64,000 bases of DNA, taken from IMG/VR virus record IMGVR_UViG_3300042940_001591. One strand, given 5' to 3'. This DNA comes from a virus (lineage: Duplodnaviria > Caudoviricetes). Below are positions 13,930 to 35,990 of this stretch, one piece after another. Numbering within the stretch: the stretch's first letter is position 1; every line of letters starts with the position of its first letter. The notes under the pieces are model-generated. The model was not told the DNA's origin. It saw only the letters and a program-made list of their open reading frames with translations, and searched no databases. The translations under genes and the position numbers were made by a program.

Positions 13930-14037
13930 TTCTTGGAGGTTCTCTTTGTCGATTACCTTTTCGTTTTATTTTCATAAGTAAGTGGGGTTGAACCCACCCA
14001 AAGACCTTAAACCCCGACATCTCGTTGGGGTTTTTTA
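13930..14037 (+). ncRNA. Putative small structured RNA (element A)
   Basis: TTGACT (13898) and TATTTATA (13922-13929) upstream; 13937-13948 pairs with 13999-14007; inner GTGGG/CCCAC hairpin; terminator 14009-14036; no ORF. Confidence 0.5.
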
Positions 14038-14081
14038 TTAAAATTTGGTTTTATCAACGGATTTTCGTATATTTACATTAT

Positions 14082-14261
14082 ATGAAAAAATATACATTTA
14101 TCTTAGCACTTGGTGTAGCACTTACACTAACTGCATGTGGTTCAGGGTCAACCGCAACTGAAACAACTGACTCAACTGCGGTTCAAGTAGACACTGCCGC
14201 AGTATCTGCGACAGATTCAACAACTGCACAAATTCCTGCAGACGGTTCATCCGTAAAATAA
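14082..14261 (+). CDS. Small Ser/Thr/Ala-rich lipoprotein
   Basis: MKKYTFILALGVALTLTAC lipobox; start moved to 14082. Confidence 0.8.
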   Translation: MKKYTFILALGVALTLTACGSGSTATETTDSTAVQVDTAAVSATDSTTAQIPADGSSVK

Positions 14262-14316
14262 AAATTGGGGTCGGTAACCAATCCGACCTTATTTTTAATT
14301 TTTAAATCTCTCTCCA

Positions 14317-14745
14317 ATGGATACAAATACAGAAAAACAAGGCGATTTAATACTTCTCAGAGGTATTCCTGGTTCGGGTAAAACAACATTTGCCAATGTT
14401 ATATTACAACAACCAAATAACAACCCACAAGAAATATTGTCTGCAGATGATTTTTTTGAGGATGAAAATGGTGAATATAATTTCGACCCAACAAAATTAA
14501 AAGAAGCACACAATTATTGTCAATTTAGATGTTCCGAAAGAATGAGACAACAAAAAGTGAGAATTGTGGTTGCAAATACATTTACACAGGAGTGGGAAAT
14601 GGATGAATATTTTAAAATGGCTGAAAGGTACAATTATAGGGTTCATACAATAATTGTAGAGAATAGGCATGGTAATGAAAATATCCACGGAGTCCCAAAA
14701 GATAAACTTCAACAAATGAAGAATAGGTTTGAAATTAAATTATAG
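14317..14745 (+). CDS. P-loop polynucleotide-kinase-like protein (AAA_33 type)
   Basis: LRGIPGSGKTT, LSADDFF, VVANTF. Confidence 0.85.
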   Translation: MDTNTEKQGDLILLRGIPGSGKTTFANVILQQPNNNPQEILSADDFFEDENGEYNFDPTKLKEAHNYCQFRCSERMRQQKVRIVVANTFTQEWEMDEYFKMAERYNYRVHTIIVENRHGNENIHGVPKDKLQQMKNRFEIKL

Positions 14746-14991
14746 ATGAGTCAATTTATTGAATCTTATTTTAAAATAATCTCACAAAAAAAAACAAAAA
14801 TGAAATTTAGTTCACACTTATTTAAAAATCAATGGGCTGTATACCCATTACCTTTTGCATATATCTATTTTGAAACATGTGAACCAGAATCACATAAAAC
14901 ATTACTTGAAAATAAAATATGTGCGGTGTACTTGTCTTTTAATTGGTTAAAATGGACTTACAATGTTGGATTTTATAAACCTATTAGATAA
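14746..14991 (+). CDS. Hypothetical protein
   Basis: 81-aa ORF tightly packed in the operon. Confidence 0.55.
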   Translation: MSQFIESYFKIISQKKTKMKFSSHLFKNQWAVYPLPFAYIYFETCEPESHKTLLENKICAVYLSFNWLKWTYNVGFYKPIR

Positions 14992-16199
14992 TGTTGGAAA
15001 TTTTACAGAAATACCATACTGATGGTTTGTTACATAAACAAACTCACCCAACTCTTGATTTAACTATTTGGAATTATTCACCAAAAGTTCAGTATGAAAG
15101 ATTATGGGATGAGATTACTTTGCAATGTCGTGGATTGGTAACCAACTCAAAAGGAAAAATTGTTGCAAGACCGTTTAAGAAATTCTTCAACTACGAAGAA
15201 CATAAATCAGAAGACATCCCAAATGAAGATTATGTTGTCTATGAAAAAATGGATGGTTCTTTAGGTATTCTCTTTTATTACGAATACGAATTGAGTGATG
15301 AAAGGAGATACAACATATGGTTTAATAATAATTACGAAACGGGCATGGAAAGGTTTTTTGACCCGAACAACTTACCTGATTATGATAATTCATATTATGA
15401 ACCAACACCAAAGACTAAGGGTGAATGGATAATGGCAACTCGTGGGTCATTCACATCACCACAAGCAATTAAGGGAAAAGAAATTCTTGATAACAAATAT
15501 GATGTAAGTTCTTTAAGTAAAAAAAGAACCTATTTGTTTGAGATTATTTATCCCGAAAATCGTATCGTTGTTAATTATGGTAATGAAGAAAAGTTAGTTC
15601 TTCTTGGTGTTATAGATACCGATAGTGGTGAGGAGTTACCCAATAGTTCAATATTTTTTATGCAAGAACAAGGTTTTGAAGTTGTAACAACGTACAAAAC
15701 TTGGGGCGAAGGATATGACTTATTGAAAGAAGAAATATCTAAAGACAAGGAAGGTTATGTCATTCGTTTCAATAATGGTTTCCGTATGAAAATTAAAGGA
15801 GAAGAATATGTTAGACTTCACAAAATTTTAACCAACGTATCAAATAGAGATATATGGGAATATTTGAAAGATAATAAACCATTTGATGAACTACTTGAAA
15901 AAGTTCCGGACGAATTTAATCAATGGGTTAAAGAAACTGTTCGAGATTTAAGATATGCTTGTTTTCAACTAAGAGAACGTGCAGGTAAATTACATGATGG
16001 TTTTAGATATGGAAAATTTAATGACAGGGGCCCTGAGCCATCTAAAAAAGAATTTGCCGAATTTGTTATGAAACAACAAAAAGTTTTACATGCGATTATG
16101 TTCGCAATGTGGAATGGAAATAATGAAAAAGTCGATGACATAATTTGGAAAATAGTTAAACCAGAATATTCAAAACCATTTAAGAAAGATGAAAACTGA
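14991..16199 (+). CDS. RNA ligase 1, T4 Rnl1-like
   Basis: LQCRGLV, RPFKKFFN, EKMDGSLG adenylation motif, FEIIYPENRIVV, EGYVI, KIKGEEY. Confidence 0.92.
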   Translation: MLEILQKYHTDGLLHKQTHPTLDLTIWNYSPKVQYERLWDEITLQCRGLVTNSKGKIVARPFKKFFNYEEHKSEDIPNEDYVVYEKMDGSLGILFYYEYELSDERRYNIWFNNNYETGMERFFDPNNLPDYDNSYYEPTPKTKGEWIMATRGSFTSPQAIKGKEILDNKYDVSSLSKKRTYLFEIIYPENRIVVNYGNEEKLVLLGVIDTDSGEELPNSSIFFMQEQGFEVVTTYKTWGEGYDLLKEEISKDKEGYVIRFNNGFRMKIKGEEYVRLHKILTNVSNRDIWEYLKDNKPFDELLEKVPDEFNQWVKETVRDLRYACFQLRERAGKLHDGFRYGKFNDRGPEPSKKEFAEFVMKQQKVLHAIMFAMWNGNNEKVDDIIWKIVKPEYSKPFKKDEN

Positions 16200-16674
16200 G
16201 AAAAAAAGATTATACTTAGACGACGTTAGAACACCAATTGGAACTGATTGGGTTATTATAAGAAATTATGAACATTTTGTTTCTACCATTAGATTATATG
16301 GGTTAGAAAATTTTGATGTTATTTCGTTAGACCATGATTTAGGTGATGAGTCTATGATTGAGTACTATACAAATGTAAAAAATAATTATGTTTTAAATTA
16401 TGACAACATAGTTAATGAAAAAACAGGATATGATTGTTGTAAATTTTTAGTGGCTGAAAGTATGTCCAAAAAGATACCCCTTCCCCAAATTTATGTTCAT
16501 TCCGCAAATCCAATCGGTAGTGCTAATATGATGGGATATATTAATAATTATTTAATGAACTGTGGTTTACCCCAAACCTGTATTAGGGTTAAAATTGAAC
16601 ACACAATAGACGAGCCAATGATACTTTCTCCAGAAGCCAGAAAAGCAAAATGGGATAGAAGTAAGGAAAATTAA
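16189..16674 (+). CDS. Cyclic-phosphate-processing receiver-like domain protein
   Basis: LYLDDVRTP, ISLDHDLG, KTGYD, YVHSANPIG; adjacent to the RNA ligase. Confidence 0.78.
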   Translation: MKTEKKRLYLDDVRTPIGTDWVIIRNYEHFVSTIRLYGLENFDVISLDHDLGDESMIEYYTNVKNNYVLNYDNIVNEKTGYDCCKFLVAESMSKKIPLPQIYVHSANPIGSANMMGYINNYLMNCGLPQTCIRVKIEHTIDEPMILSPEARKAKWDRSKEN

Positions 16675-16725
16675 TTTTTATTTTAAAAAAAAATTATTTA
16701 TATTACACTAACCAAATATTAGACA

Positions 16726-17076
16726 ATGGCTTACACAAAAAAAACAAGAACACCATATAAAAAAATGTACATAAAGGGGAAATATGAAGATTTCACTGAT
16801 TTTTATGATATTAATAAAAAATCAATTTATGAAAATATTTTGGAGGTTTTTTATGGTTTCAAAGACAATAAAAAAAGAGTATTAACACTTTATATTCAAG
16901 CGATTATACAAGGTTTGGAATGGGATACCGAGTTTAAATTTAATAGAACTGACACAATTGTTTTAACAAGAGACGTATTACCGTATTTTGAAAGTATTGA
17001 GGATTATGAAAAATGTTCAGAAATAAAAAATTTATATGAAGTATTGACAAATAAAAAAGAATTGTCTATAATTTAA
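16726..17076 (+). CDS. Hypothetical protein
   Basis: 116-aa ORF. Confidence 0.65.
   Translation: MAYTKKTRTPYKKMYIKGKYEDFTDFYDINKKSIYENILEVFYGFKDNKKRVLTLYIQAIIQGLEWDTEFKFNRTDTIVLTRDVLPYFESIEDYEKCSEIKNLYEVLTNKKELSII
17044..17072 (+). promoter_or_regulatory. Perfect sigma70-type promoter
   Basis: TTGACA (17044-49), 17-nt spacer, TATAAT (17067-72). Confidence 0.6.
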
Positions 17077-17113
17077 TTGTATCAGGAGAGAGGTACATTT
17101 TCATTTTTGTCAC

Positions 17114-17148
17114 ATCCCCGTTGGTTTTAATCATCGGGGATTTTTTTT
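17114..17148 (+). terminator. Intrinsic terminator
   Basis: ATCCCCG...CGGGGAT followed by a T-run. Confidence 0.75.
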
Positions 17149-18604
17149 ATAGTACCATTCTTGACCCTATTAAGAAATTACTTAACCAAGGTGAACCTGG
17201 AGATGTGTTTCCACTCAATTTGTAGTTAAAACTAAACCCAAATCGTTTACTCAACTTGTAATCAAACGAACTACCTAATAAGAATCCCATATGTCGATTA
17301 ACGGTGGACGTTCCTGCAACAGTGTTCCAAGATAATGGTGCAAACATTGTAAATATTTGTGGAGACACCGTCAACTTTTTACTATATTGATATGGTTTAG
17401 TCCAAAAAGCGACTACCGATGACGACATGTTATAATCATAGTTATCTTTTTCATTTTTAAGAAATAAATTTATCAATCCTAAATTATAACCAAATACACC
17501 ATGCTTTGGTGTTGGTTTAATATATGTATAACCTAATAAATTCATGTAGTTCCCATTCAAATAAGCAAATGCGGTAGAATATGAGTGTATTGCTTTTAAT
17601 TTACCTTCTGAGAAATCCATCTTAGTGTATCCACCACTAACAATAAATGTTTTTAGGTCACTCATAATAACCGTATTTGCGGAATAACTTTTATCCCCCA
17701 TCAAGGATGATTTAGATACCCCAATAGTGGCCGATTGTAACCATCTACCGTCAGGTGATTCTATTGTTGATAAATCAGAAGATAATAACATAGGATTTGT
17801 TGCGACCGCCTTTTCTTTTTTCTTCTCTTCTTTTTTCTTTTCCTCTTCCTTCTTTTCTTCTTTAGATTCCTCTTTCTTTTCTTCTTTTTTCTCTTCCGAT
17901 TTAGATTCCTCTTTCTTTTCTTCGGATTTACTTTCAGATTTAGATTCTTCTTTTGATTCAGATTTACTTTCGGTTTTTGATTCTGACTTAGTCTCCGATT
18001 TAGTTTCGGTTTTTGTTTCTGTTTTAGTTTCAGAAGATGAGGATGATCCACCACTTGATGACGAACCACTTGATGAAGATGATGAACTTCCACTACTTGG
18101 TGGTGGAGGTGTTGATGAACTACTACTTGTTGGTGGTGGAGTAGTGGGTGGTGGTGTTGACGCGGCGGAACTTGCGGCAGCTGAACTTGCACTTGAACTA
18201 GCAGCAGAACTTGCCGATGATGATGCAGCACTACTTGCCGCACCACTTGCAGCAGAACTAGCGGCTGCAGATGCTGCCGATGCTGCAGCATTACTTGCGG
18301 TTTGTGCAGCCGCATTTGCTACCGTTTGTTGAACAATTGGATTATTAATTACAGGACAAGTTAATGCCTCATATGTTGCTTTAGTTGTAAATAACCAAGT
18401 CTGTACAACTCCCGTTTGTACTTCCATAGGAGAAAATGTTCTTACTTGATTGTAAAAAGACACAGTAGCATTACCATTTATGATGGTTGTTGTTGCTATC
18501 TTTTTTTCACCACTACATTTATCAATAAATGTTTGAGTGTACGTTTGTCCAAAAGATTTACCACAAAAAAACAATATTAGGAGAGAGATAATATATTTTT
18601 TCAT
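17147..18604 (-). CDS. Exported protein with a low-complexity linker and probable C-terminal beta-barrel
   Basis: Signal peptide; successive A/S, P/T, S/G and E/K/S tracts; aromatic-rich beta-strand C-terminus. Confidence 0.75.
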   Translation of the reverse strand: MKKYIISLLILFFCGKSFGQTYTQTFIDKCSGEKKIATTTIINGNATVSFYNQVRTFSPMEVQTGVVQTWLFTTKATYEALTCPVINNPIVQQTVANAAAQTASNAAASAASAAASSAASGAASSAASSSASSAASSSASSAAASSAASTPPPTTPPPTSSSSSTPPPPSSGSSSSSSSGSSSSGGSSSSSETKTETKTETKSETKSESKTESKSESKEESKSESKSEEKKEESKSEEKKEEKKEESKEEKKEEEKKKEEKKKEKAVATNPMLLSSDLSTIESPDGRWLQSATIGVSKSSLMGDKSYSANTVIMSDLKTFIVSGGYTKMDFSEGKLKAIHSYSTAFAYLNGNYMNLLGYTYIKPTPKHGVFGYNLGLINLFLKNEKDNYDYNMSSSVVAFWTKPYQYSKKLTVSPQIFTMFAPLSWNTVAGTSTVNRHMGFLLGSSFDYKLSKRFGFSFNYKLSGNTSPGSPWLSNFLIGSRMVL

Positions 18605-18605
18605 T

Positions 18606-19439
18606 TTAAAAATTGATACCTAAACCAAAGGTACCGTTACGAATTACCGGGTCATAGTCATACTTTATTGTTATATTTTTGAAATCGTGTAATATTCCAA
18701 CTTTAACAGTTGCGAATCTATCTTTATATTTTGGGAAAGTAATATATCCAATATCATCTTTACCTCTCCACTTCACATCTTCCGTCACACTACCAATCAT
18801 AAGGTGAATACCCGTTCTTTTAATCCTCTTACCAACACCAACATAGAAATTTCTTTGTTCTATCAAATCACTTACCATTGGAAAATCGACTTGTGTTATA
18901 TTACCATAAGGAAAGAATGTTGAATTATCTCTTTCAAATGTTGAGTTATATTCAGCAATAAAATATGCTTTAGTCCCTATTGTAAAAAATCCACCAATCT
19001 GATTACCACCTGTTTTCTGAATACCAAAGCTGACGATTGGTCTCTTACCTTTAATGGTGTCCAATTTTCCATTATCATAAACATACACTCTTGCAGGTTG
19101 TCTATAACCCCAATCGTTTAAGTAAAAGCCTGGGTTCCAAAAGTTCCAACCAAATGCAGGTGCTCCCCACATATCCCATCTATTCCATCCCCATCCAAAA
19201 TTATTCATTAACCATGGGTCTCTTACAATTATGTTTGAACCTGGTCTTGTTCTTAGAGGTCTATCATATCCATTTGATGGTGGTTGATTTCTCCAATTAC
19301 TAACATCATTTCTTTGTGGAGTTGGTGGTTGTATTGATGGTGTTGACCTTTGAGGTGTAGGTGGATTACTTCTCCATGATGAGACTTGTCCTAACACGAT
19401 AGTTGGGATAAGTAATAATAATATTAATAACGTTTTCAT
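18606..19439 (-). CDS. Exported, probable outer-membrane beta-barrel protein
   Basis: Signal peptide, Pro/Trp-rich N-terminus, terminal TFGLGINF. Confidence 0.7.
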   Translation of the reverse strand: MKTLLILLLLIPTIVLGQVSSWRSNPPTPQRSTPSIQPPTPQRNDVSNWRNQPPSNGYDRPLRTRPGSNIIVRDPWLMNNFGWGWNRWDMWGAPAFGWNFWNPGFYLNDWGYRQPARVYVYDNGKLDTIKGKRPIVSFGIQKTGGNQIGGFFTIGTKAYFIAEYNSTFERDNSTFFPYGNITQVDFPMVSDLIEQRNFYVGVGKRIKRTGIHLMIGSVTEDVKWRGKDDIGYITFPKYKDRFATVKVGILHDFKNITIKYDYDPVIRNGTFGLGINF

Positions 19440-19516
19440 ATGGTTATTCTTTTATTATAAATATAAAAAAAGGAGGTTATTACACCTCCTTTTAAATAAT
19501 TCTTAATGTAATTAAA

Positions 19517-20239
19517 CTATTTTGTGAATATTCCTTTTTTAATCATTCTATCAAGGATGTTAGCACATGCAATATCTAAAGCCTTTTTAGTTGCTATGGA
19601 AATTGTTGATTGATTAAATTTTATTGGGTCTACAGTTGCATCAGATAAAAGGGTTAACTCTCTTTTTGTGGTTGCCTCACCTAAACCCGATCCACCAAAT
19701 ACAACACCTGTTTCAGCATCTGTAAATCTAACCTGAAGACCTATACGAGTCACCATATTGTCTTGTATACCATTTTTAAGGTTGATGGTTTCATCTTCCG
19801 ACACCGAGTAATCATAACACTCAATAGTGACAAAATACTTTGCCAAATTTATTTTACCACGACCATCTAATTTATTCTCGGAAATACCAGATTGGGATGC
19901 TTGGAATTGCTTTACCATACGATTCTTAATTTCTGTTTTATCCTCAGTAAATTTGAATCTGTTTAAGTTTTCAAGATATTCCATTGAAATATTAGCAACC
20001 CCCAAACCAACACGTTTTTCTTTTAGTTCAGGATACATTTCATACATCTCATCAGAAATTCCTGCCTTTAATATTTGAATTGGAATTTGTGGACCGTCGT
20101 AATCCATATAATCACTAATATCTCTTTTCTTTTCGAAGTCCGCCTTGTAGTCTTCTGTTTTAGTTTTACCTATTGTTTGTCCGTTAACAACAACAACGCT
20201 TAGTAAAAAAACGCTTAATAATGTTAATAATTTTTTCAT
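19517..20239 (-). CDS. CsgG/HfaB-like outer-membrane assembly protein
   Basis: Signal peptide; LENLNRFKFTE; YFVTIECYDY; IGLQVRFTDAETGVVFGGSGLGEA resembles the CsgG fold. Confidence 0.65.
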   Translation of the reverse strand: MKKLLTLLSVFLLSVVVVNGQTIGKTKTEDYKADFEKKRDISDYMDYDGPQIPIQILKAGISDEMYEMYPELKEKRVGLGVANISMEYLENLNRFKFTEDKTEIKNRMVKQFQASQSGISENKLDGRGKINLAKYFVTIECYDYSVSEDETINLKNGIQDNMVTRIGLQVRFTDAETGVVFGGSGLGEATTKRELTLLSDATVDPIKFNQSTISIATKKALDIACANILDRMIKKGIFTK

Positions 20240-20249
20240 ACATTTTATC

Positions 20250-20417
20250 TTAACCCTTCCAATTTTTTGGGTGGGATTTTCTTTTAGGTGTGTTATTTAT
20301 AATTTCTTCTACAACAACAATTTCCGGTTCAGGAATAACTTCCTCAACAACTGAAACAATTTCAGGTTCCGTAATTATTTCTTCAATAACAGTAACAATT
20401 TCATTATTTTCTTCCAT
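20250..20417 (-). CDS. Small Glu/Val/Ile-repeat protein (absent from the ORF track)
   Basis: Manual translation MEENNEIVTVIEEIITEPEIVSVVEEVIPEPEIVVVEEIINNTPKRKSHPKNWKG. Confidence 0.6.
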   Translation of the reverse strand: MEENNEIVTVIEEIITEPEIVSVVEEVIPEPEIVVVEEIINNTPKRKSHPKNWKG

Positions 20418-20477
20418 TTTTAATTAATTTTTTAAATAAATTTTTATTAAAAAGGAGGGTTTTATCCCTCCTTAATA

Positions 20478-20726
20478 TTAACCTTCCATCTCATCTTTCT
20501 TTTTGTGAGAGAACTTATCCAAAGTGTCAGCACCCATTCCAATTCCCGTGATTAACATCACTGCATTCACCAATTCAGGTGACGGGGCAAAATCCGCATG
20601 AGAGAACGAATTTAAAATCATCGTTATACATAGGAATAAAGCACCTATCATTGCTATTACCGGTTTTACCGATATTGAACCTCTTTCATCTTTGAAGAGT
20701 TCGATTACCCATTGTTTAAAATTCAT
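20478..20726 (-). CDS. Two-TM membrane protein, holin-like
   Basis: LFKDERGSIS followed by two hydrophobic segments. Confidence 0.6.
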   Translation of the reverse strand: MNFKQWVIELFKDERGSISVKPVIAMIGALFLCITMILNSFSHADFAPSPELVNAVMLITGIGMGADTLDKFSHKKKDEMEG

Positions 20727-20751
20727 TTTTGTCTTGTTTTAATTTTATTTA

Positions 20752-21381
20752 TTATCCTTCCATATGCATTTCTGCATTTTCATCTTTTATTTTACCACAC
20801 TTTAAACATTCCTCGATTCCGTCACCATCCAAGTCACCCCAAACGTGTTCACATTGTCTATGTGCAAAATACATATCAATTTTACCATCACCATCAAAAT
20901 CTATACCATCCATTGTACCATCACCATCTTCATCAACTTCAACACCAGTTCTTGGTTGAACGGTTGGTACTTGTTCAAACGTATCATTTACCTTTTCTAT
21001 TTTTGAGTTTTCAATAGCGGTTTGAAACTCCTCTGGTATGATTGGAGTGTTGTTTGGTGGAGTTGGTGGTAAATCGGCGGTATTGCTTAATGATGTGCCA
21101 TCTTCTTCATCCATTTTCTGAACTAACATCTTATCCTTATCGGTATCACTAAACCAATAGTCAATTATTTTACCATAAGAACCGATGAAAGCTCCTAACA
21201 ATAATAGAAGAAGTTCTTTCCATTCTCCTTCTATTGCTGATTTATTTAATATAGCAAAGAACATTCCTCCTATAATAAACATGAATCCACCCAATACCAA
21301 TGCGGTGATGTACCATCTTCTGGCCATCATATTACTTAATAAATCTTTAAAACCACTTGGTGGTTGTTTGTTTTCTGCCAT
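20752..21381 (-). CDS. Two-TM membrane protein with DxDGDG calcium-binding-like repeats
   Basis: Two TM helices, FIGSYGKIIDYWF, DEDGDG/DFDGDG/DLDGDG, C-terminal Cys/His cluster. Confidence 0.7.
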   Translation of the reverse strand: MAENKQPPSGFKDLLSNMMARRWYITALVLGGFMFIIGGMFFAILNKSAIEGEWKELLLLLLGAFIGSYGKIIDYWFSDTDKDKMLVQKMDEEDGTSLSNTADLPPTPPNNTPIIPEEFQTAIENSKIEKVNDTFEQVPTVQPRTGVEVDEDGDGTMDGIDFDGDGKIDMYFAHRQCEHVWGDLDGDGIEECLKCGKIKDENAEMHMEG

Positions 21382-21383
21382 TT

Positions 21384-21662
21384 TTATTTATTTTTTTTTA
21401 AAAGAGATTTTATATCACAATAACAGGAATTAGCACCGTGAGCTATTGCCATTAGTATCCACATTAAAGTCATTTCACCCAAACCCAAAATGGTTTTAGG
21501 AGTATCACTACTTAATGTGTTTGGTGAACAATGTGTTATTGATTGTATTGGTTCGTAAAAATAGATCGCTAATCCTAAAAAAATTATAGAAACCCAATAT
21601 CTTAGTATGTAGTATTTTATATTATTCATATTATTATTATTTTTTATCTTTTCCAAGACCAT
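21384..21662 (-). CDS. Small membrane protein
   Basis: Two hydrophobic segments; true start probably the internal MNNIKY. Confidence 0.55.
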   Translation of the reverse strand: MVLEKIKNNNNMNNIKYYILRYWVSIIFLGLAIYFYEPIQSITHCSPNTLSSDTPKTILGLGEMTLMWILMAIAHGANSCYCDIKSLLKKNK

Positions 21663-21799
21663 CCCTTTTTTCTACCTCTTATTAATAAATAACTACAACC
21701 CCCAATAAAAAATGTTAAAAACATCGATTGGGAATTAAATACAAACATAGCTATCATACATAATACGATTACCGCTATAAAACTTAATCCCTGTTCCAT
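21644..21799 (-). CDS. Small membrane protein (absent from the ORF track)
   Basis: Manual translation MEQGLSFIAVIVLCMIAMFVFNSQSMFLTFFIGGCSYLLIRGRKKGWSWKR. Confidence 0.5.
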   Translation of the reverse strand: MEQGLSFIAVIVLCMIAMFVFNSQSMFLTFFIGGCSYLLIRGRKKGWSWKR

Positions 21800-21808
21800 T
21801 TTAAATTT

Positions 21809-22120: not shown

Positions 22121-22158
22121 TGTATTTGTTTTTAGTTTTTTAGTTTATTTTATTAATA

Positions 22159-23276: not shown

Positions 23277-23278
23277 TT

Positions 23279-28458: not shown

Positions 28459-28473
28459 TTTATTATTTTTTTT

Positions 28474-29124
28474 TTATTTTTTATCCATTAATTTATTTAT
28501 TAATTTTTCACTAGCCTTTTTAAGTGCATTACTTAAAGATGTTTGGTTAAACGACCCCCCTTCATCGACAATAAGCGTCGACATAGAAACTTCAGATGAT
28601 GATTCCTCAACAACAAATTCTTTTTCTTTTTTACCGTCTTTTGTTAATGTTCCCTTCAATCTAATAACCACTTCCTCCTGATTAGAATGGAAAACAGATA
28701 TGTTCTTCTTTGTTGTAAGAACATCTAAATAAACAATTTGTACTTTTAATTTGTAAGGAGATGATGCCGATAAATCGTAGCCTTTTTCTTGTAAAAACTC
28801 TTCTAATATGTTTTTAACCCCGAATGCTAAATTTCTGTTACCAGCCAATTTACCAATTTTAACCTCATTGGTTACACTCTCAACCCAAATATGGTCTTCA
28901 GCATTATACCAAATGTTTTCTGGAGAGTTTTTGAATGTTCCATCAATTCTCCACGAAATCCAATTAACGATATTTCGTTGCAACTCATGTTTGCCGGAAA
29001 ACTCTAAATAAACAAAGAATAATTGAAAACAAAGGGCAAAGACTATCCAAAATACTACTAATCTTAAAAATACCCAAAATAATATATTGCCTAAATTAAG
29101 TGATAATGTTCTAATTCTTTCCAT
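28474..29124 (-). CDS. N-terminally membrane-anchored periplasmic protein
   Basis: Long hydrophobic N-terminus; alpha/beta domain; first gene of the module. Confidence 0.65.
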   Translation of the reverse strand: MERIRTLSLNLGNILFWVFLRLVVFWIVFALCFQLFFVYLEFSGKHELQRNIVNWISWRIDGTFKNSPENIWYNAEDHIWVESVTNEVKIGKLAGNRNLAFGVKNILEEFLQEKGYDLSASSPYKLKVQIVYLDVLTTKKNISVFHSNQEEVVIRLKGTLTKDGKKEKEFVVEESSSEVSMSTLIVDEGGSFNQTSLSNALKKASEKLINKLMDKK

Positions 29125-29273
29125 ATGAAATTTTTTAAAGTACTCCTGGCAATTTTCATATGAAAAGAGTCAGGAGAGAGATAATTTTTATTTGTCCCTT
29201 ATAAATATCAACACTTTATACATCTGACAAAAAAAAGTTTTTAACTTTTCTTGATTATATACGTATTTATTAA

Positions 29274-29281
29274 TATCTTTG
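29274..29281 (+). promoter_or_regulatory. Bacteroidetes -7 promoter for the tRNA array
   Basis: TATCTTTG; further copies at 29989, 30667, 32305, 32610, 33598 and 35430. Confidence 0.7.
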
Positions 29282-29310
29282 TAAAAGAAAAAAAGATAAA
29301 ACTAAATTCA

Positions 29311-29406
29311 ATGAGACAATTAACAAACATAACGTCGACATCAAACCAACTAAATTGGAATGAGCAACCTATGCGCATATGTCTCGATGATACTGATGTT
29401 GGTTAA
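29311..29406 (+). CDS. Putative 31-aa leader peptide
   Basis: MRQLTNITSTSNQLNWNEQPMRICLDDTDVG* between the promoter and a terminator. Confidence 0.4.
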   Translation: MRQLTNITSTSNQLNWNEQPMRICLDDTDVG

Positions 29407-29430
29407 TTTAGTTTAACTTAAAATATTAGA

Positions 29431-29468
29431 AAACCTCGGGACTTAAAAATCTCGAGGTTTTTTGTTTT
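29431..29468 (+). terminator. Intrinsic terminator upstream of the tRNA array
   Basis: AAACCTCGGGA / TCTCGAGGTTT stem followed by a T-run. Confidence 0.75.
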
Positions 29469-29476
29469 ATACAAAT

Positions 29477-29551
29477 AGGGTAATGGACTAATGGCTAAGT
29501 CACTTGCTTTGGGAGCAAGGCATCATGGAGGTTCGAGTCCTCTTTACCCTA
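29477..29551 (+). tRNA. tRNA-Pro(TGG)
   Basis: AGGGTAA/TTACCCT acceptor, CTTGC-TTTGGGA-GCAAG, TTCGAGT T-loop. Confidence 0.88.
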
Positions 29552-29556
29552 CAAAC

Positions 29557-29628
29557 GCTGATTTAGCTCAGAGGTAGAGCACGAAGCTGTTAACTTCGGG
29601 GTCCAGATATCGTAATTCTGAATCAGCG
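29557..29628 (+). tRNA. tRNA-Asn(GTT) with an atypical T-loop
   Basis: GCTGATT/AATCAGC, CGAAG-CTGTTAA-CTTCG, G73; T-loop reads ATCGTAA. Confidence 0.8.
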
Positions 29629-29634
29629 CAAAAT

Positions 29635-29706
29635 GCGTGTGTAGTTCAATTGGTAGAATTTCGGTCTCCAAAACCGAAGATGAAGGTTCGAGTCCTTACA
29701 TGCGTG
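29635..29706 (+). tRNA. tRNA-Trp(CCA)
   Basis: TCGGT-CTCCAAA-ACCGA, TTCGAGT, G73; G-U-rich acceptor stem. Confidence 0.85.
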
Positions 29707-29713
29707 CAACAAT

Positions 29714-29793
29714 ACCCGAGTGGTGGAATGGTATACACAGCGGTCTTAGAAACCGTGTCGAAAGGCGTGTCGGTTCGAGTCCGACCTTGGGTA
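29714..29793 (+). tRNA. tRNA-Leu(TAG)
   Basis: ACCCGAG/CTTGGGT, GCGGT-CTTAGAA-ACCGT, long variable arm. Confidence 0.92.
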
Positions 29794-29798
29794 CATAT

Positions 29799-29869
29799 TG
29801 TCCTTTAGTATAGTGGTAGTACAGATGGTTTTGGTCCATCTAGCTGTGGTTCGAGCCCACGAGGGACAA
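29799..29869 (+). tRNA. tRNA-Gln(TTG)
   Basis: TGTCCTT/AGGGACA, GATGG-TTTTGGT-CCATC. Confidence 0.9.
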
Positions 29870-29874
29870 CATAT

Positions 29875-29947
29875 TGCGGGGAGGAGGGTACCCGACCAGT
29901 CTCATAAGCTGTGTCTTTTCCGGTTTCGACTACCGGCCCCGCAACCA
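29875..29947 (+). tRNA. tRNA-Met(CAT) with a reduced D-arm and encoded CCA
   Basis: TGCGGGG/CCCCGCA-ACCA, CAGT-CTCATAA-GCTG, CCGGT-TTCGACT-ACCGG. Confidence 0.75.
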
Positions 29948-30097
29948 AAAAGATTTTAAAATAATTTGGAATATCTGAAATTATTTATTATCTTTGTTAA
30001 ACAATGGTTGATTGGGATTTAACGGGGCTAGCGAATAGCGAGAAACGCCAATCATAAAAACAGATGTCCACACCCCCATCTTCTGTTTTCCATAGTA

Positions 30098-30171
30098 GCC
30101 CGAATAGCTCAGCTGGCCAGAGCAACTGATTTGTAATCAGTAGGTCCTCAGTTCGAATCTGAGTTTGGGCT
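30098..30171 (+). tRNA. tRNA-Thr(TGT)
   Basis: GCCCGAA/TTTGGGC, ACTGA-TTTGTAA-TCAGT. Confidence 0.92.
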
Positions 30172-30173
30172 CA

Positions 30174-30349
30174 ACAGGTGACGACGGTGGTGTAACCCCA
30201 CTGTCTATGAATCCCAAAAGATCCGTCTGACTCGCGAGGTAGGGCGGTGAGGGTAGAGTTACTATAAGTCGGGAATAATTACCCCAATACGAAAATGTAA
30301 CCGCAGACTATGTCTGTTATGATGTACATAGATGGTACGAAAAACCTGT
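30174..30349 (+). ncRNA. Unclassified multi-stem RNA between tRNA-Thr and tRNA-Ser
   Basis: ACAGGT/ACCTGT closing stem; GACGGTGG/CCACTGTC; CAGAC/GTCTG; GC-rich relative to its surroundings; no ORF. Confidence 0.5.
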
Positions 30350-30437
30350 AACTTTTTGAAACTAACTCAACGAGGACTTTGTCAACCAGAGCAGTGACTC
30401 GGATGGTGCAACTTAAGGTGAGTTAGAATCAATTTTT

Positions 30438-30522
30438 AGAGAGTTGGCCGAGTGGTTGATGGCACCAGTCTTGAAAACTGGCATACTGAAAGGTATCTGG
30501 GGTTCGAATCCCTAACTCTCTG
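30438..30522 (+). tRNA. tRNA-Ser(TGA)
   Basis: AGAGAGT/ACTCTCT, CCAGT-CTTGAAA-ACTGG, long variable arm, G73. Confidence 0.92.
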
Positions 30523-30698
30523 CAAGAATTAACTAAGATACTGTAAAACCAGTAGGTGGTGATTCCAGATTTATCTGTGAGCCATTTAAACCCTGATAGC
30601 AATGTTAATTTTTAATATATAATATTTTTTTTATATTAAGATATTGATTTCCAACATTTTATTCTGTATATTTGTCATATTATTAATATTTATAATAT

Positions 30699-31001
30699 AT
30701 GATAGATAAAATCACATTATCGTTAATGTTATTTTTTAACACATTAACATCATCTATCGACCCAAGTCTTTCTGATGAAAGAAAGTCAGTCAATCAAATA
30801 AAAAAAGAGATTAAATCCCTTGAAAGAAAGATTGAATGGGTTGAAGTAACAGATGAGAATTACGCTAGCAGGGCCGTCAAAACCAAAGAAATCACGGACG
30901 AGATTACCAAATTGAATGGTAAAATTGTAAAGATTGAGAAGGTTGCAAAATTAAAAGAGAAATGGGCAACGGAAGATTCCTTGTCCAAATCAAAAAAATG
31001 A
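30699..31001 (+). CDS. Hypothetical coiled-coil protein with a hydrophobic N-terminus
   Basis: 100-aa ORF behind TATATTTG (30667). Confidence 0.6.
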   Translation: MIDKITLSLMLFFNTLTSSIDPSLSDERKSVNQIKKEIKSLERKIEWVEVTDENYASRAVKTKEITDEITKLNGKIVKIEKVAKLKEKWATEDSLSKSKK

Positions 31002-31447
31002 AAAAAATTTTTTTAGTGCTAACGTTACTTTTGGGAGTGGAAGTCGTAGCAAATGGACAAGAGTGGTTTATAACCGCCACTCGAAAAGGCGGTCCATCAG
31101 ACGGTTATATAACAGGTGGTTTTATGAAAAAAGGTTGGGGGTTTTATGCGGGACTTCCATACGGTGAAATAAAAACCCCAAATGGCGGAATTTCAATTCC
31201 CCCTGGTGTTAACACCAATACAGGAAATGTGTCCGATAACATGAAGTTTGGTGTTCTTAGACAATTAAAAGAAGACAAGGCGATTGTTGGATTTGGATTA
31301 CAGCCAACACTTGATGGTAATAAACCAAATTTTCTTATAATGTACAATCCACTTAGGCCAAGTACTGTTATAAATTTATGGACAATTGGTAATTTAGTCG
31401 GTAGTGATTTTACATTAGGACTTGGATTATCGTATAAAGTAAAATAA
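30998..31447 (+). CDS. Small exported, probable outer-membrane beta-barrel protein
   Basis: MKKIFLVLTLLLG signal; terminal LGLGLSYKVK; start moved to 30998. Confidence 0.7.
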   Translation: MKKIFLVLTLLLGVEVVANGQEWFITATRKGGPSDGYITGGFMKKGWGFYAGLPYGEIKTPNGGISIPPGVNTNTGNVSDNMKFGVLRQLKEDKAIVGFGLQPTLDGNKPNFLIMYNPLRPSTVINLWTIGNLVGSDFTLGLGLSYKVK

Positions 31448-31568
31448 AATAAAATTTTAGTTAAGTTAATTCCCTGAACAAACTAAAAAAATTGTTCGGG
31501 GTTTTTTTATATCACATTTTTTGTTTATGTTTGAGTTATAGTTCTTTGATGTATTGGAAAAACAAAAT

Positions 31569-31653
31569 GCCTGAGTGATGAAATGGTATACATGACAGAC
31601 TTAAAATCTGTTGAGCAGAAACGCTCGTGCGGGTTCAAGTCCCGCCTCAGGTA
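31569..31653 (+). tRNA. tRNA-Leu(TAA)
   Basis: GCCTGAG/CTCAGGT, ACAGA-CTTAAAA-TCTGT, long variable arm. Confidence 0.92.
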
Positions 31654-31657
31654 CAAA

Positions 31658-31763
31658 TGTAATGACTCAGAAATGAGTGACGGAACGGACGCTACGTATG
31701 AAATGGAAACTTTTGATGCACGTACAAAGGTGCTGATTAGAAACAAACCGTACAGACATTACA
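31658..31763 (+). ncRNA. Unclassified structured RNA between tRNA-Leu and tRNA-Arg
   Basis: TGTAATG/CATTACA closing stem; ACTC/GAGT, ACGG/CCGT and TACGT/ACGTA inner stems. Confidence 0.5.
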
Positions 31764-31770
31764 TTAACTT

Positions 31771-31844
31771 GGTTCCGTAGCTCAGTTGGATAGAGCAACA
31801 TCCTTCTAAGATGTGGGTCTTTGGTTCGAATCCAAACGGGATCA
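31771..31844 (+). tRNA. tRNA-Arg(TCT)
   Basis: GGTTCCG/CGGGATC, ACATC-CTTCTAA-GATGT. Confidence 0.92.
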
Positions 31845-31854
31845 CGTAAATTTT

Positions 31855-31928
31855 GGACTTGTAGCTCACTCGGTTAGAGCGGCACACTCATAATGTGAAG
31901 GTAGTAGGTTCGATTCCTACCTGGTCCA
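31855..31928 (+). tRNA. tRNA-CAT (Ile2 or elongator Met)
   Basis: GGACTTG/CTGGTCC, GCACA-CTCATAA-TGTGA; identity cannot be resolved by eye. Confidence 0.85.
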
Positions 31929-32120
31929 CTTTTAAGTTATGGGTCTCCGATGGAAGTCCGCAAGAAAAATAGATGTTTTTCATCCATCAAAAAATTACCA
32001 TAGAGACCGCTAAATCGAGTTAGTGAAAATCTACATTCTCATTGGTAATCATTCATGACACCTACCGGTGGTTCCACACTAAGGTTATGTGAGGCTTCGG
32101 CTGATAAAAGGGTGTTATAT

Positions 32121-32271
32121 TGTAGTGTGACGAAATTGGCAAACGTACCCTCCTGTCTCGGGGGTGTGGACAAAGAAATAGATTGATAATATTAGGGGGT
32201 AGACCACCAGCTTGCAAGCGTCATGTTATCAGTTGAATCTCCACTTGGTGGTTCGAACCCATCCACTACAG
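32121..32271 (+). tRNA. tRNA-Asp(GTC)-like with an 82-nt variable-arm insertion
   Basis: TGTAGTG/CACTACA-G73, CCCTC-CTGTCTC-GGGGG, GGTGG-TTCGAAC-CCATC; insert at 32165-32246. Confidence 0.8.
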
Positions 32272-32335
32272 CAAATTAAATTTTGTTTTTTGAAATTTAT
32301 TATGTATATTTGTAAAACAATTAAAGATTAAAATT

Positions 32336-32557
32336 ATGAAATGTATTAAGTTAATTAAAGCAAGTAAAGGTCATGAAATTGGTCAAGTTTTAAGAGTAGA
32401 AGATAACGAAGCGGATTTAAGAGTTAAAGGTGGTTATTGGTCATTTGCACCAAAAACCGAATATAAACTTTACAAAAATCCAGACTATAAAACTAAGAAA
32501 ACTGATGATAAAGTTTCTTCTAAAAAACAATTAAAGAAGAAAAAAACTTCTGAATAA
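32336..32557 (+). CDS. Small basic hypothetical protein
   Basis: 73-aa ORF behind TATATTTG (32305). Confidence 0.65.
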   Translation: MKCIKLIKASKGHEIGQVLRVEDNEADLRVKGGYWSFAPKTEYKLYKNPDYKTKKTDDKVSSKKQLKKKKTSE

Positions 32558-32669
32558 AAAAAAATAAAAAATATTTGATGATTTATTTTGTTTTTTAAAA
32601 TATTCATTGTATATTTGTAAAAGAAATCACAAAGGTGGTTTCGTAGTAAGAAAAAGTTCTTTGATTTAA

Positions 32670-33540
32670 AAATATTGGCCGCCTATGGTCGATTAAAATA
32701 AACCATGAAAGTGGGATAAAGTGACAAACCCTTGGTTGGGGTAAGTTGCGGTTTCAGTAATGGAACTTGAGTAGGCAAGTGGAGTATCGTTGAACCTTAA
32801 GTACTGAGGGTAACACTTTAGGGAAAGTGGTTTGATGACTAAGCAATCCGAGTTGTTTGGTTGAGGTGGGGACACCAATAAGAATAATCCATAGAGTTAT
32901 TGTGAGAAGTATCGTTATCCGACTTTACAATTGCGTGATTCAATATAATGGGAATCTTAAAACCGAAAGGTATGGTGAAGTACGAGTGGTGTCGTTATCA
33001 TCCTTTATTAAACTCTACCAAGGGTTTAGTTCTGAAGGGGTCCAAAAATATGGTAGCAGGGATGTTACAGAGAGTAGTTTAGTATCGAGTCGCTCAAAAG
33101 GTGGCTTGGCTAGGTGACGAACCACTACTTTCCAAATTCGGATAACTAAATTTTGTTAATTTTGGTTTAACAACTTAAAATCATACAAGAAGAAGTGTTC
33201 GTCAGTCGTTGTAGACAGGTGGCTACATAGTCGTGAGGGGTTCACGGCCACAAAGGGTCTCAAGCCCAATGTGATTTTTAAAAAAGTTCTCTAAACCCGC
33301 AAGGTTGAATCAGGGAGGCATCTTTGATGAGTAATGAGTATTAAAAGAGTATATAACGACTCAAGGATTGGTTAATCTAATTGACCGCCGCTGATTGGTA
33401 CTACTCAAAAGGTAGTGGAAAAGGGAAGAAACAAATAATGTCCCTAAGTCAATTATTAAGACATGTATTCTCAGTGTTTTATTTTCTTTGTTTAGTAAAA
33501 CAAAGTGGTGGAATTGGAACGTTTTAAAACCGTTCGGCCC
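32670..33540 (+). ncRNA. Giant structured ncRNA, GOLLD-like
   Basis: About 0.85 kb without a credible ORF; GC-enriched; own promoter (32610) and terminator (33551); many hairpins; long-range pairing 32803-32812/33466-33475; lies next to tRNA genes in a phage. Confidence 0.65.
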
Positions 33541-33550
33541 AAAAAAGATT

Positions 33551-33577
33551 AGTCAGATTTATTCTGACTTTTTTTTT
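33551..33577 (+). terminator. Intrinsic terminator
   Basis: AGTCAGA-TTTAT-TCTGACT followed by a T-run. Confidence 0.75.
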
Positions 33578-33610
33578 GCTTTTAAATAAATTTTACTTAT
33601 ATTTGATATT

Positions 33611-34360
33611 ATGAGAATAGTTTGTATATCCGACACACATGCCTTACATAGAGGTATGACCCACGAATTACCACAAGGTGATGTGTTAATACATGCGGGT
33701 GATTTATCAAATAGAGGTGGAGAAAGAGATGTGACAGAATTTATTCATTGGTTTCAAAACATAGAAGGGTTTGACTCTAAAATTTTTATTTCGGGTAATC
33801 ACGATTTCTGTTTTGAGCGGGTTAATCAACCGCACCATAAAGGCGACTACGATTGGTTAAACAATCTAATGACTCCTGAAAATCTATCTCAATCCAATGT
33901 GACTTATTTGGAAGATAATTTTATGACTATTGAGTCACCTGAATTTTCAAGACCAATTAAAATCTACGGAAGTCCTTGGCAACCAAATTTTTATGATTGG
34001 GCTTTTAACTTACCAAGATTTGGGGTTGAGTTACAAGAAAAGTGGAATATGATTTCAGAAGATACTGATGTATTAATAACACATGGACCACCAAATGGAT
34101 ACGGAGATTTAGTTAATAATTGGCGACAACCAAATACAAACGTAGGTTGTGAGTTGTTACGAAATAGAATAGAAGAAATAAATCCATTAGTAAGTGTATT
34201 TGGTCATATTCACGAAGGTTATGGTGTTGAGCTCGGTAATAAAACATTATTCGTAAATGCATCAACTTGTAACTCAAAATACGAACCAATAAATAAACCA
34301 ATAATCATAGACTTACAAGAAGTTTATGGTGAAATAATTGCAACTCATGTCGAAATATAA
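33611..34360 (+). CDS. Calcineurin-like metallophosphoesterase
   Basis: CISDTH, HAGD, GNHD, LITHGPP, FGHIHE. Confidence 0.92.
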   Translation: MRIVCISDTHALHRGMTHELPQGDVLIHAGDLSNRGGERDVTEFIHWFQNIEGFDSKIFISGNHDFCFERVNQPHHKGDYDWLNNLMTPENLSQSNVTYLEDNFMTIESPEFSRPIKIYGSPWQPNFYDWAFNLPRFGVELQEKWNMISEDTDVLITHGPPNGYGDLVNNWRQPNTNVGCELLRNRIEEINPLVSVFGHIHEGYGVELGNKTLFVNASTCNSKYEPINKPIIIDLQEVYGEIIATHVEI

Positions 34361-35030
34361 TGGACCAATTAGTGTTGTCATTTCAACACGAAAAATAGAT
34401 GATACGTATTTAAAACACGTTGAGAAAATGTTTTCACACCCTAAAACTCAAATATTAATTTATGAGAATGATGGTGTGGATTCATTACCCAAAATTTATA
34501 ATTTAGGATTACAAGATTCCGAAAATGATATTGTGGTGTTTATGCATGACGATCTTATTTTGGAAACCCCTAATATCACACCAAAAGTTATTAGATTATT
34601 TGAGGAGAATCCTGAATATGGCATAATAGGATTGGCCGGTACTAATAATTTAATGAGTGGAATGTGGTGGCAGGATAAAGAATCTATGTATGGTGTTGTT
34701 GGTCATGAACATCAAGGTAAAAGACATGTAAATCACTACTCAAAACAATCATTTGGTGACAAACCAAAAGAAGTGGTTATTGTTGATGGGTTATTTATTA
34801 TGGTTCATAAAGATAGAATTAAACATAAGTTTAATGAAGAATTTACAGGGTTCCATTTCTATGATTTACCGTTTTGTGTTGACAACCATTTAGATGGGAT
34901 TAAAGTTGGGGTTACCACTAAAATAATGGTAACACATAAATCCATTGGTATGGTAAATAAACAATGGGAAAAAAATAAGTTGTTTTTTGAGGCATTATAC
35001 GAAAAACACTTCCCTTTAAGGGTTAATTGA
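34338..35030 (+). CDS. GT2-like glycosyltransferase
   Basis: IYNLGL...VFMHDDL...VIVDGLFI...FHFYDL. Confidence 0.8.
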   Translation: MQLMSKYNGPISVVISTRKIDDTYLKHVEKMFSHPKTQILIYENDGVDSLPKIYNLGLQDSENDIVVFMHDDLILETPNITPKVIRLFEENPEYGIIGLAGTNNLMSGMWWQDKESMYGVVGHEHQGKRHVNHYSKQSFGDKPKEVVIVDGLFIMVHKDRIKHKFNEEFTGFHFYDLPFCVDNHLDGIKVGVTTKIMVTHKSIGMVNKQWEKNKLFFEALYEKHFPLRVN

Positions 35031-35072
35031 TTTTAGCACAATAACGGATATTTATATATAAAACAAACAATT

Positions 35073-35372
35073 ATGATGACAGTACTTTTAATTTTATTGG
35101 CTTTGGTTGTGGCTGGAGCGGTAGTATTTTTCCTAATGAAATCAGGTAAAATCGAAGACAAAGATGGTAATAACATTCCAGATGCGGTTGAAGAAAAATT
35201 GGCGGAAGTTAAAGAAGTTGCTAAAGTGGTTAAGGAAAGAGTAAAAAGAGTAGTTGAAGAAACTAAGGATGTTGCTGAAGCCGCTAAAAAAGTTGTTAAG
35301 CAATCTAAAGATGTTGTAAACGCAACTAAAGGTGGTTCTCGCAAAGGAAGAAAACCAGCCGCTAAGAAGTAA
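35073..35372 (+). CDS. Small N-anchored membrane protein with a helical, basic tail
   Basis: N-terminal TM, EDKDGNNIPD, Lys/Val/Glu heptads; TATTTATA at 35049. Confidence 0.7.
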   Translation: MMTVLLILLALVVAGAVVFFLMKSGKIEDKDGNNIPDAVEEKLAEVKEVAKVVKERVKRVVEETKDVAEAAKKVVKQSKDVVNATKGGSRKGRKPAAKK

Positions 35373-35452
35373 ATTATCACACATAATTAAATTTAAGGGT
35401 TAAAATTTGTTTTTTAACCCTTTCTCATCTACATTTGTATTCTATTTATTAC

Positions 35453-35849
35453 GGGGGTGCTTGGCATTGATTTCAGGTATCAGGGGTAAGTGGCACGTAG
35501 TCAGACTTCATCTATGACTTAAATCTATGGTGGAAAATTCTAGACGGCAACGTTTATAACAACATGGAAATTGCAGGTTTACTTGCAACTTCTAACGTAG
35601 CAGTAGCCTAAGGCGAAACTACAATCGGGTCGACTGGCATGTAACCTAGGAACAGAAGCCTTCAAGGTGTAACACCACCCGAAGAGTGTTGGAGCAAATC
35701 TGACGGCTCTTGAAAATCCGGTTAGGAACAGTATTGATGGTTTCCTGTAATTAACCTTCTATTTGTCTGTTATGAACTAATAGAATAAACGTGTAGTCAT
35801 TTATTGTTGAACAGGAAAGACACGGGTTCGAGTCCCGTCACCTCCACCA
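35453..35849 (+). ncRNA. ssrA: tmRNA
   Basis: GGGGGTG/CACCTCC-ACCA acceptor with G3-U70; GGTTCGAGTCCC T-arm; internal tag ORF 35546-35611; TACATTTG promoter at 35430. Confidence 0.93.
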
Positions 35850-35850
35850 T

Positions 35851-35879
35851 AAACCCATCTTCGGATGGGTTTTTTGTTT
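35851..35879 (+). terminator. tmRNA terminator, possibly bidirectional
   Basis: AAACCCATC-TTCG-GATGGGTTT followed by a T-run. Confidence 0.8.
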
Positions 35880-35990
35880 GGTGTCTCTATTAACGAGCAA
35901 AAGGTCCGAAGACCCTTTGTCGAGATTTGAAACACCTCCTTTTCGTTTATAAGTATTATCGTTTAATGGCGACCAAACCAATTAAACTCT
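35880..35990 (-). ncRNA. Putative small structured RNA (element B)
   Basis: Minus-strand TATTTATA at 36001-35994; 5' hairpin; GGUGUUUC/GAGACACC stem enclosing a cUUCGg hairpin; no ORF. Confidence 0.55.

Follow-up and report, generated by a model that had tools for sequence, protein, structure and literature searches.

Two small RNA genes, A and B

The window considered here is the whole 64,000-nucleotide (nt) stretch of IMG/VR record IMGVR_UViG_3300042940_001591, which belongs to a freshwater phage of Bacteroidota with a genome of ~300 kilobases (kb) and a ribosomal protein bS21 of its own. Two small genes lie within it, A on the plus strand and B on the minus strand. Both have a defined architecture, are conserved among related phages, and specify sequences that are complementary to each other and co-vary between genomes. 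By sequence criteria, A and B are conserved, single-copy, structured RNA genes, each with a promoter recognized by motif only, no conserved open reading frame (ORF) and a terminator. Their transcripts would be made in opposite senses and may pair in trans as a small RNA (sRNA) and its anti-sRNA. The two genes comprise the following parts.

13899-13929, plus strand: promoter-like region of A, TTGACT followed by TATATATATTTATA, which contains TATTTATA; invariant in relatives
13931-14036, plus strand: small RNA gene A, ~100-106 nt; 5' end putative, conserved from AGG at 13937
13982-13997, plus strand: hairpin of A, stem GTGGG / CCCAC and loop GTTGAA, the loop being invariant; 5 of 5 pairs change on both sides (68 sequences)
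14009-14036, plus strand: intrinsic terminator of A, followed by a U-tract; 5 of 10 pairs covary
35890-35990, minus strand: small RNA gene B, ~100 nt; both ends putative
35898-35919, minus strand: terminator hairpin of B with a UUCG loop on the minus strand, then UUUUG; 6 of 9 pairs covary, with G-U in 29 sequences
35961-35987, minus strand: 5' hairpin of B, its loop UUUGGUC conserved; two-sided changes at 10 of 10 pairs, many G-U pairs forming on the minus strand only
35994-36001, minus strand: TATTTATA upstream of B, directly 3' of the stop codon of ORF 36007-36651 (minus); kept in relatives of B

Copies of TATTTATA precede both genes, at 13922-13929 (+) before A and 36001-35994 (-) before B. 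The motif is present 27 times in the window against 14 expected, with 19 of the copies preceding a same-strand ORF start by 2-33 nt, and it is probably a phage promoter. The initial annotation had placed A behind a plus-strand copy and B behind a minus-strand copy, with a terminator ending A (14009-14036) and a cUUCGg loop found only on the minus strand of B; each of these features was recovered, the loop lying in GGTC-CGAA-GACC at 35903-35914. Among the 27 window sites, TATTTATA frequently ends only 2-4 nt before an ATG, so that many phage messages may be leaderless or nearly so.

Conservation, structure and strand

Relatives were gathered from IMG/VR by flanking-protein searches and pattern scans. 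For A, a model-based alignment holds 68 distinct sequences, in which a short variable stretch is followed by ~30 near-invariant nt and the stems covary; overall, both sides change in 10 of 21 pairs, the paired cells amount to 98.9%, and none of 500 shuffles reached the observed values. The gene is conserved far more than the flanking coding sequence and is retained where the upstream gene differs. B was found in 66 IMG/VR contigs, and 45 distinct sequences of it were aligned; across these its centre is the conserved unpaired part, its stems covary and 95.8% of cells pair. Covariance models R1 (B) and R2 (A) each detected a single copy per genome or contig, two complete genomes among them. Homologous loci in related phages retain the shared blocks described below (68 A and 45 B distinct sequences), as the initial annotation had required of a genuine pair.

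The strand of each gene follows from pairs that are valid in one sense only. The G-U pairs of the A hairpin form on the plus strand only, and one terminator pair of A, with 55 sequences having G-U and 10 having A-U, likewise works on the plus strand only. In relatives of B the terminator loop is UUCG, GUGA or GUAA, in the minus sense only. Terminators, tetraloops and G-U pairs thus independently assign A to the plus and B to the minus strand, in agreement with the opposite-sense transcription first proposed from the window by itself. Of the sequence words of 32900-36700, 12-19% occur in 24 metatranscriptome runs, and two RNA runs contain 4-6 of 10 words sampled from A; such word matches do not count as evidence of transcription.

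Neither gene appears to encode a protein. Indels of 1-2 nt in the U-run of A among relatives exclude a conserved peptide; an 11-codon TTG-start peptide had been considered for A and was rejected for this reason and because the frames differ between the two loci. B has no conserved ORF and no start codon at Shine-Dalgarno (SD) spacing, and indels among its relatives shift any frame. Considered as a leader, B has a single frame behind it, a 44-codon GTG frame running antisense into the transfer-messenger RNA (tmRNA) gene, and this is not conserved; beyond B, the minus strand runs antisense through the tmRNA gene. Pairing of CUUUG with CAAAG as a closing stem of A likewise found no support, the 3' side varying (AAUG, AACG, CUUG) while CUUUG is invariant. 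No Rfam family (release 15) was matched by either RNA, the best hits being terminator-driven and reaching 24 bits against a gathering threshold of 47 for A and 20 bits against 95 for B, and the earlier statement that no described family is recognizable at the two sites still stands.

Shared blocks and the predicted two-helix duplex

Three sequence blocks are colinear on the plus strand at both loci, at the positions reported initially.

13944-13952 (A) and 35915-35923 (B), plus strand: block 1, CTTTGTCGA
13956-13966 (A) and 35938-35948 (B), plus strand: block 2, CCTTTTCGTTT
13974-13980 (A) and 35949-35955 (B), plus strand: block 3, ATAAGTA; variable among relatives

In A the blocks are separated by 3 and 7 nt, in B by 14 and 0 nt. 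A colinear match of a 9-mer and an 11-mer with the same information (39.8 bits) is expected 0.55 times per dinucleotide-shuffled window, so the first two blocks alone are not significant within 64 kb, and it might be supposed that the similarity is a coincidence between two unrelated conserved elements. With the third 7-mer (12 bits, within 10 nt) the chance expectation falls to ~0.003, which is an estimate made without simulation, but ATAAGTA is weakly conserved among relatives and hence adds little. Because the within-window significance of the blocks is weak, the case rests on related genomes. There the match is kept in 19 distinct genome pairs with compensatory changes, cognate partners outdo swapped ones, and no other unpaired part of either RNA is as well conserved as the blocks; coincidence is consequently hard to credit.

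The colinear similarity on one strand could also be read as that of two diverged members of a single RNA family, transcribed in the same sense, which the initial annotation had offered as an alternative. That idea was rejected and is given very little weight here: terminators, tetraloops and G-U pairs place the RNAs on opposite strands, so that the two are mutually antisense, and the covariance models show no cross-matches, R1 scoring A at 11 bits (E = 6) and R2 missing B altogether, with unrelated hairpins and loops.

Since A is plus-sense and B minus-sense, identity of the blocks on the same DNA strand makes the corresponding RNA segments antisense to each other. The pairing segments are as follows, together with an SD-like tract in B.

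13942-13952, plus strand: helix I seed of A, CTCTTTGTCGA; partner is B 35913-35923, 11 base pairs (bp)
13956-13970, plus strand: helix II seed of A, CCTTTTCGTTT plus U-run; partner is B 35938-35948 plus the A-run of B
35913-35923, minus strand: helix I partner site in B, UCGACAAAGGG; overlaps the foot of the B terminator stem
35931-35942, minus strand: SD-like tract of B, AAAGGAGGUGUU; Watson-Crick complementary to the Bacteroidota 16S 3' tail over 12 nt
35938-35948, minus strand: helix II partner site in B, AAACGAAAAGG; extends into the SD-like tract at AAAGG and is unpaired with a mean probability of 0.83 when B is folded alone

Helix I (11 bp) joins A CUCUUUGUCGA at 13942-13952 with B UCGACAAAGGG at 35923-35913, and helix II (11 bp) joins A CCUUUUCGUUU at 13956-13966 with B AAACGAAAAGG at 35948-35938, the latter being extended by the U-run of A and the A-run of B. 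The bulge of B left between the two helices can fold into a small hairpin.

Co-variation of A with B

Pairing was followed in 29 contigs carrying both genes, which give 19 distinct same-contig A/B combinations with relatedness not controlled. Helix I is paired in 207 of 209 cells and the 8-bp core of helix II in 150 of 152, or 357 of 361 together. Compensatory double changes occur at three positions of helix I: C-G to U-A (L133/L249), U-A to C-G by way of U-G intermediates (L139/L176, L152/L203), and A-U to U-A (L145/L224, from the most distant complete genome). The search for compensatory changes between plus-sense A and minus-sense B that the initial annotation had suggested thus gave a positive result, complementarity being kept in all 19 pairs with three positions doubly changed. 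In each of the 29 wobble cells the U belongs to A and the G to B; were the RNAs read from the other strands, these cells would be A-C mismatches, and the intermolecular data therefore agree with the strands derived from the structure of each gene.

A further possibility is that the blocks constitute a double-stranded DNA site for a phage regulator acting downstream of both promoters, and that the RNAs never meet. The blocks are identical on the same strand and stand just 3' of the same promoter-type motif, and parallel changes in both copies would suit a shared protein specificity. However, the block spacing differs (3 versus 14 nt), as does the distance from the motif (~15 versus ~45 nt), and differences between the copies are always T in A and C in B, never reversed, which is compatible with wobble pairing of the proposed RNAs. 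In both RNAs, moreover, most of the block sequence falls outside the covarying hairpins; the exception is the end of the helix I site of B, which enters the foot of the terminator stem. A DNA site is accordingly considered improbable.

Energy calculations point in the same direction as the alignments. Cognate A/B partners have lower duplex energies than swapped partners (permutation p = 0.015), an effect driven by divergent lineages. Except for its own antisense, the best target of the A seed in the window is B (-33.8 kcal/mol against a mean of -12.8, standard deviation 4.3). Cofolding of A and B gains 9.2 kcal/mol over the two monomers, and helix II has an intermolecular pairing probability of 0.98 in the dimer ensemble. 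Whole-length RNAduplex comparison with shuffled B discriminates weakly, 9 of 300 shuffles being as good.

The arrangement of the two genes is likewise conserved. A and B are on opposite strands in 17 of 17 pairs with listed strands, and the convergent opposite-strand arrangement is kept while the distance between them ranges in relatives from ~6 kb to 35 kb. Spacing examples were compared for L139/L176 (G023), L125/L162 (G024) and the window. In the distant fragment G008, B is present and A was not found in a record that is 31% complete, so nothing follows from the lack of an A match.

The initial annotation had further predicted that a bulged duplex would cover half of the SD-like tract and open the hairpin of B, and the cofold agrees, covering the AAAGG half and displacing the base of the terminator stem. 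When B is folded by itself, AAAG of the tract has unpaired probabilities of 0.89-0.99, and the GAGGU core pairs for the most part with a conserved AUCUC, in a small internal hairpin. In the A+B ensemble, AAAGG of B is 0.95-0.99 paired with A. The helix I site of B is buried in the terminator foot (unpaired probability 0.09), and A must therefore displace the lower stem. In these folding models, A would take the same toehold on B that the very 3' end of 16S ribosomal RNA (rRNA) would use.

The SD-like tract of B and the host rpsU leader

The tract AAAGGAGGUGUU is made up of the bulge between the helices and the 3' part of the helix II site. It is the longest 16S-tail complement in the window, where GGAGG is otherwise hardly used before genes. 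The second longest lies in a terminator-like hairpin at 19463-19495 (-), the 5' arm of which, AAAGGAGGUGU, is an 11-nt complement of the 16S tail and the 3' arm of which, ACCUCCUUUUUUU, is tail-like.

A scan of bacterial genomes (16S ends L281-L400, the position at the 3' end of 16S being confirmed in one locus) revealed two forms of the Bacteroidota tail that differ in the base after GGAA. The form with C, GGAACACCUCCUUUCU, was seen at 95 loci from Flavobacteriales, Cytophagales and others, and that with U, GGAAUACCUCCUUUCU, at 25 loci, mostly of Pedobacter, Sphingobacterium and Mucilaginibacter with some Bacteroidales, U being found mainly in Sphingobacteriales. B matches both forms. By Watson-Crick pairing, 17 distinct B sequences complement GGAACACCUCCUUUCU over 12-13 nt and 23 complement GGAAUACCUCCUUUCU over 12-16 nt; 5 further sequences reach 14-16 nt with one wobble. 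The complementarity of at least 10 nt that marks an rpsU-type extended SD region is thus present, with 12 nt in the window and 12-16 nt in 40 of the 45 distinct relatives.

In Bacteroidia, rpsU has an extended SD of up to 13 bp that is used by ribosomes lacking bS21 (PMC9976891, PMC7797042). Among five host rpsU leaders inspected (L401-L405), the tract follows the tail variant of the same genome in four, in agreement with PMC9976891, and an ACGA flank is often common to these leaders and B. The rpsU leader of one inspected genome, that of the freshwater host candidate Aquirufa, has no SD tract. As far as its sequence goes, B is an ORF-less copy of the host rpsU ribosome-binding region; no bS21 start codon or ORF follows its tract, as initiation of the rpsU type would call for.

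The resemblance to rpsU leaders raises the possibility that the host rpsU (bS21) mRNA is itself the target of A, which would block the extended SD so that phage bS21 replaces host bS21, with B sponging or buffering A and A-B pairing being secondary. B resembles host leaders beyond the core, as seen in ACGAAAGGAGGUAU upstream of Sphingobacterium rpsU and AACGAAAGGAGGUAUUC in B variants; the helix II site of A pairs with exactly this leader-like part of B, and phage anti-sRNAs that mimic target sites are known, AgvB being an example (PMC12197685). The helix I site of A, on the other hand, has no counterpart in the five leaders inspected, pairing of A with those leaders does not exceed 8 bp and includes a bulge or wobble, Aquirufa has no SD at rpsU to be blocked, and the compensatory changes observed are between A and B. 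An rpsU target for A is thus unlikely, though it deserves more weight than a shared DNA site.

A proposed mechanism

The reading favoured here, and considered rather likely as far as the pair itself is concerned, is that A and B pair in trans as an sRNA and its anti-sRNA, B serving as a decoy to which exposed 16S tails bind and A keeping B in check. The near-invariant unpaired 5' part of A would pair in trans with the centre of B through the two helices, with a weaker third block after them. B would display a 12-16 nt complement of the 16S tail, equivalent to the extended SD of host rpsU with no gene behind it, and could grip free 16S tails, which in these hosts would be exposed only on ribosomes lacking bS21. 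By masking the accessible AAAGG half of the tract, A would serve as an anti-RNA that sets the amount of free B. The roles may also be reversed, with B acting as a sponge for A.

As B mirrors the 16S 3' tail, the A/B pair may tamper with host ribosomes; the ribosomal role proposed for it is advanced tentatively, at a level well below that of the pairing. A more elaborate version is doubtful. In this scheme B would act as a decoy of the rpsU leader, capturing the tails of ribosomes without host bS21 and ending the autoregulatory rescue of host bS21, whereupon phage bS21 would take over the ribosome pool, with A as a dedicated antidote that sets the timing or extent of capture.

Several observations weigh against pairing in trans with B as a tail decoy. 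In the window, A is only the fourth-best duplex partner of the core of B. Both RNAs are highly conserved, so that their covariation derives from few independent events with phylogeny uncontrolled. Both genes follow the same promoter-type motif and may therefore be made together, which suits titration or a fixed complex better than a switch. The invariant stretch of A (~30 nt) is longer than pairing with B needs, and A may consequently have other partners. As regards the tail, the search pattern by which B sequences were gathered admitted no base but G or A at the variant position; matches to the covariance model also have G or A there in 12 of 12 cases. The agreement of B with the tail is correlative and refers to naturally occurring tail variants, not to known hosts.

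Source phage and genomic setting

Other features of the window are those of a large phage.

1728-1919, plus strand: phage bS21 gene, 63 amino acids, Tyr at position 54; context for the SD/anti-SD reading
29477-31929, plus strand: transfer RNA (tRNA) array, ten genes
33070-33477, plus strand: GOLLD RNA, full-length (Rfam RF02032, 303.7 bits); between the tRNA array and a metallophosphoesterase gene
35453-35849, plus strand: tmRNA, one-piece, tag peptide ATSNVAVA

The closest DNA matches of the window are uncultured huge phages, and its RNA genes include ten tRNAs, one tmRNA and one GOLLD RNA. In GenBank phage records the B region had no match, and the A region was matched at the ClpB-like gene only. 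Freshwater bS21 phages of Bacteroidetes have been described (PMC9723584), and the window fits this group. Tyr54 is found in most phage bS21 proteins (PMC9723584) and in Flavobacterium johnsoniae stacks on the 16S tail (PMC9976891). The bS21 gene of the window is 34 kb from B, and in relatives PF01165 matches are located 12-14 kb from A. Upstream of the phage bS21 gene (region 1660-1919, +) there is a host-type TAnnTTTG promoter element and no SD.

A ClpB-like AAA+ gene (11875-13893) and a small lipoprotein gene (14085-14261) are 190 nt apart, with A in the space between them; further 3' are genes for a P-loop kinase and a T4-type RNA ligase. The surroundings form an RNA- and protein-maintenance cluster at 11875-16199 (+) that comprises the ClpB-like AAA+ protein, the small lipoprotein, an AAA_33 P-loop kinase, an 81-amino-acid ORF and a T4 RNA ligase 1-like protein; the kinase and ligase look like an RNA repair pair. 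B is flanked by the tmRNA terminator and the stop codon of the minus-strand ORF 36007-36651. The tmRNA gene and B are convergent, with a gap of only ~10 nt from terminator to terminator.

Significance and relationship to known systems

Phages encoding bS21 are abundant in lakes, and the A/B pair bears on how they capture ribosomes that ignore SD sites. It links the phage to rpsU autoregulation, the only known SD-dependent circuit of Bacteroidia (PMC9976891). The published study of bS21 phages profiled protein-coding genes only and small RNAs are unmentioned in it (PMC9723584), and no paper describing the A or B RNAs was found in the literature. Both are concrete molecules that could be tested in Flavobacterium johnsoniae. 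If the proposal is true, it would provide a case of an sRNA and an anti-sRNA both encoded by a lytic-type jumbo phage, and a three-part RNA circuit of phage RNA, phage anti-RNA and host rRNA tail at the one SD-dependent step of Bacteroidia. For each phage the host order could then be read from the G/A variant of B, which could serve as such a marker for uncultured phages.

Three known systems invite comparison. The extended SD region of rpsU in Flavobacteriales and other Bacteroidia mediates autoregulation by bS21 (PMC7797042, PMC9976891). Like it, B has a 12-16 nt complement of the 16S tail in two tail-matched versions and an ACGA flank shared with several host leaders; unlike the rpsU leader, B is in a phage, lacks a start codon and ORF, is closed by a terminator and is matched by a complementary RNA of its own.

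Shiga-toxin prophages encode anti-sRNAs, AgvB acting against GcvB and AsxR against FnrS (Tree et al. 2014 as summarised in PMC12197685). As in those cases, a short phage RNA would pair in trans with a small RNA, and its seed would imitate or cover a sequence resembling a ribosome-binding site (RBS), setting the amount of active partner. The A/B pair differs in that both RNAs are phage genes kept together across a phage clade, and in that B would be aimed at the 16S rRNA tail instead of mRNAs, in hosts that are Bacteroidota. Bacteroidota are not known to have Hfq.

The c4 antisense RNA of phages P1 and P7 acts on icd-ant mRNA (PMC8198154, PMC12197685). Like this ~77-nt phage antisense RNA, the A/B pair has two short, separated pairing blocks that co-vary between related phages and would involve RBS occlusion. 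Citron and Schuster reportedly described in 1990 that c4 pairs through two blocks, a'/b'. Unlike A and B, c4 is processed out of the transcript that also contains its target, an mRNA with genes behind it; an occluded mRNA RBS followed by translated genes was not found at B. A and B instead lie on opposite strands at a distance of 6-35 kb; each gene has a promoter motif and a terminator to itself, and no ORF is present in B. The A/B pair works like the prophage anti-sRNAs and like c4, and is a member of neither group.

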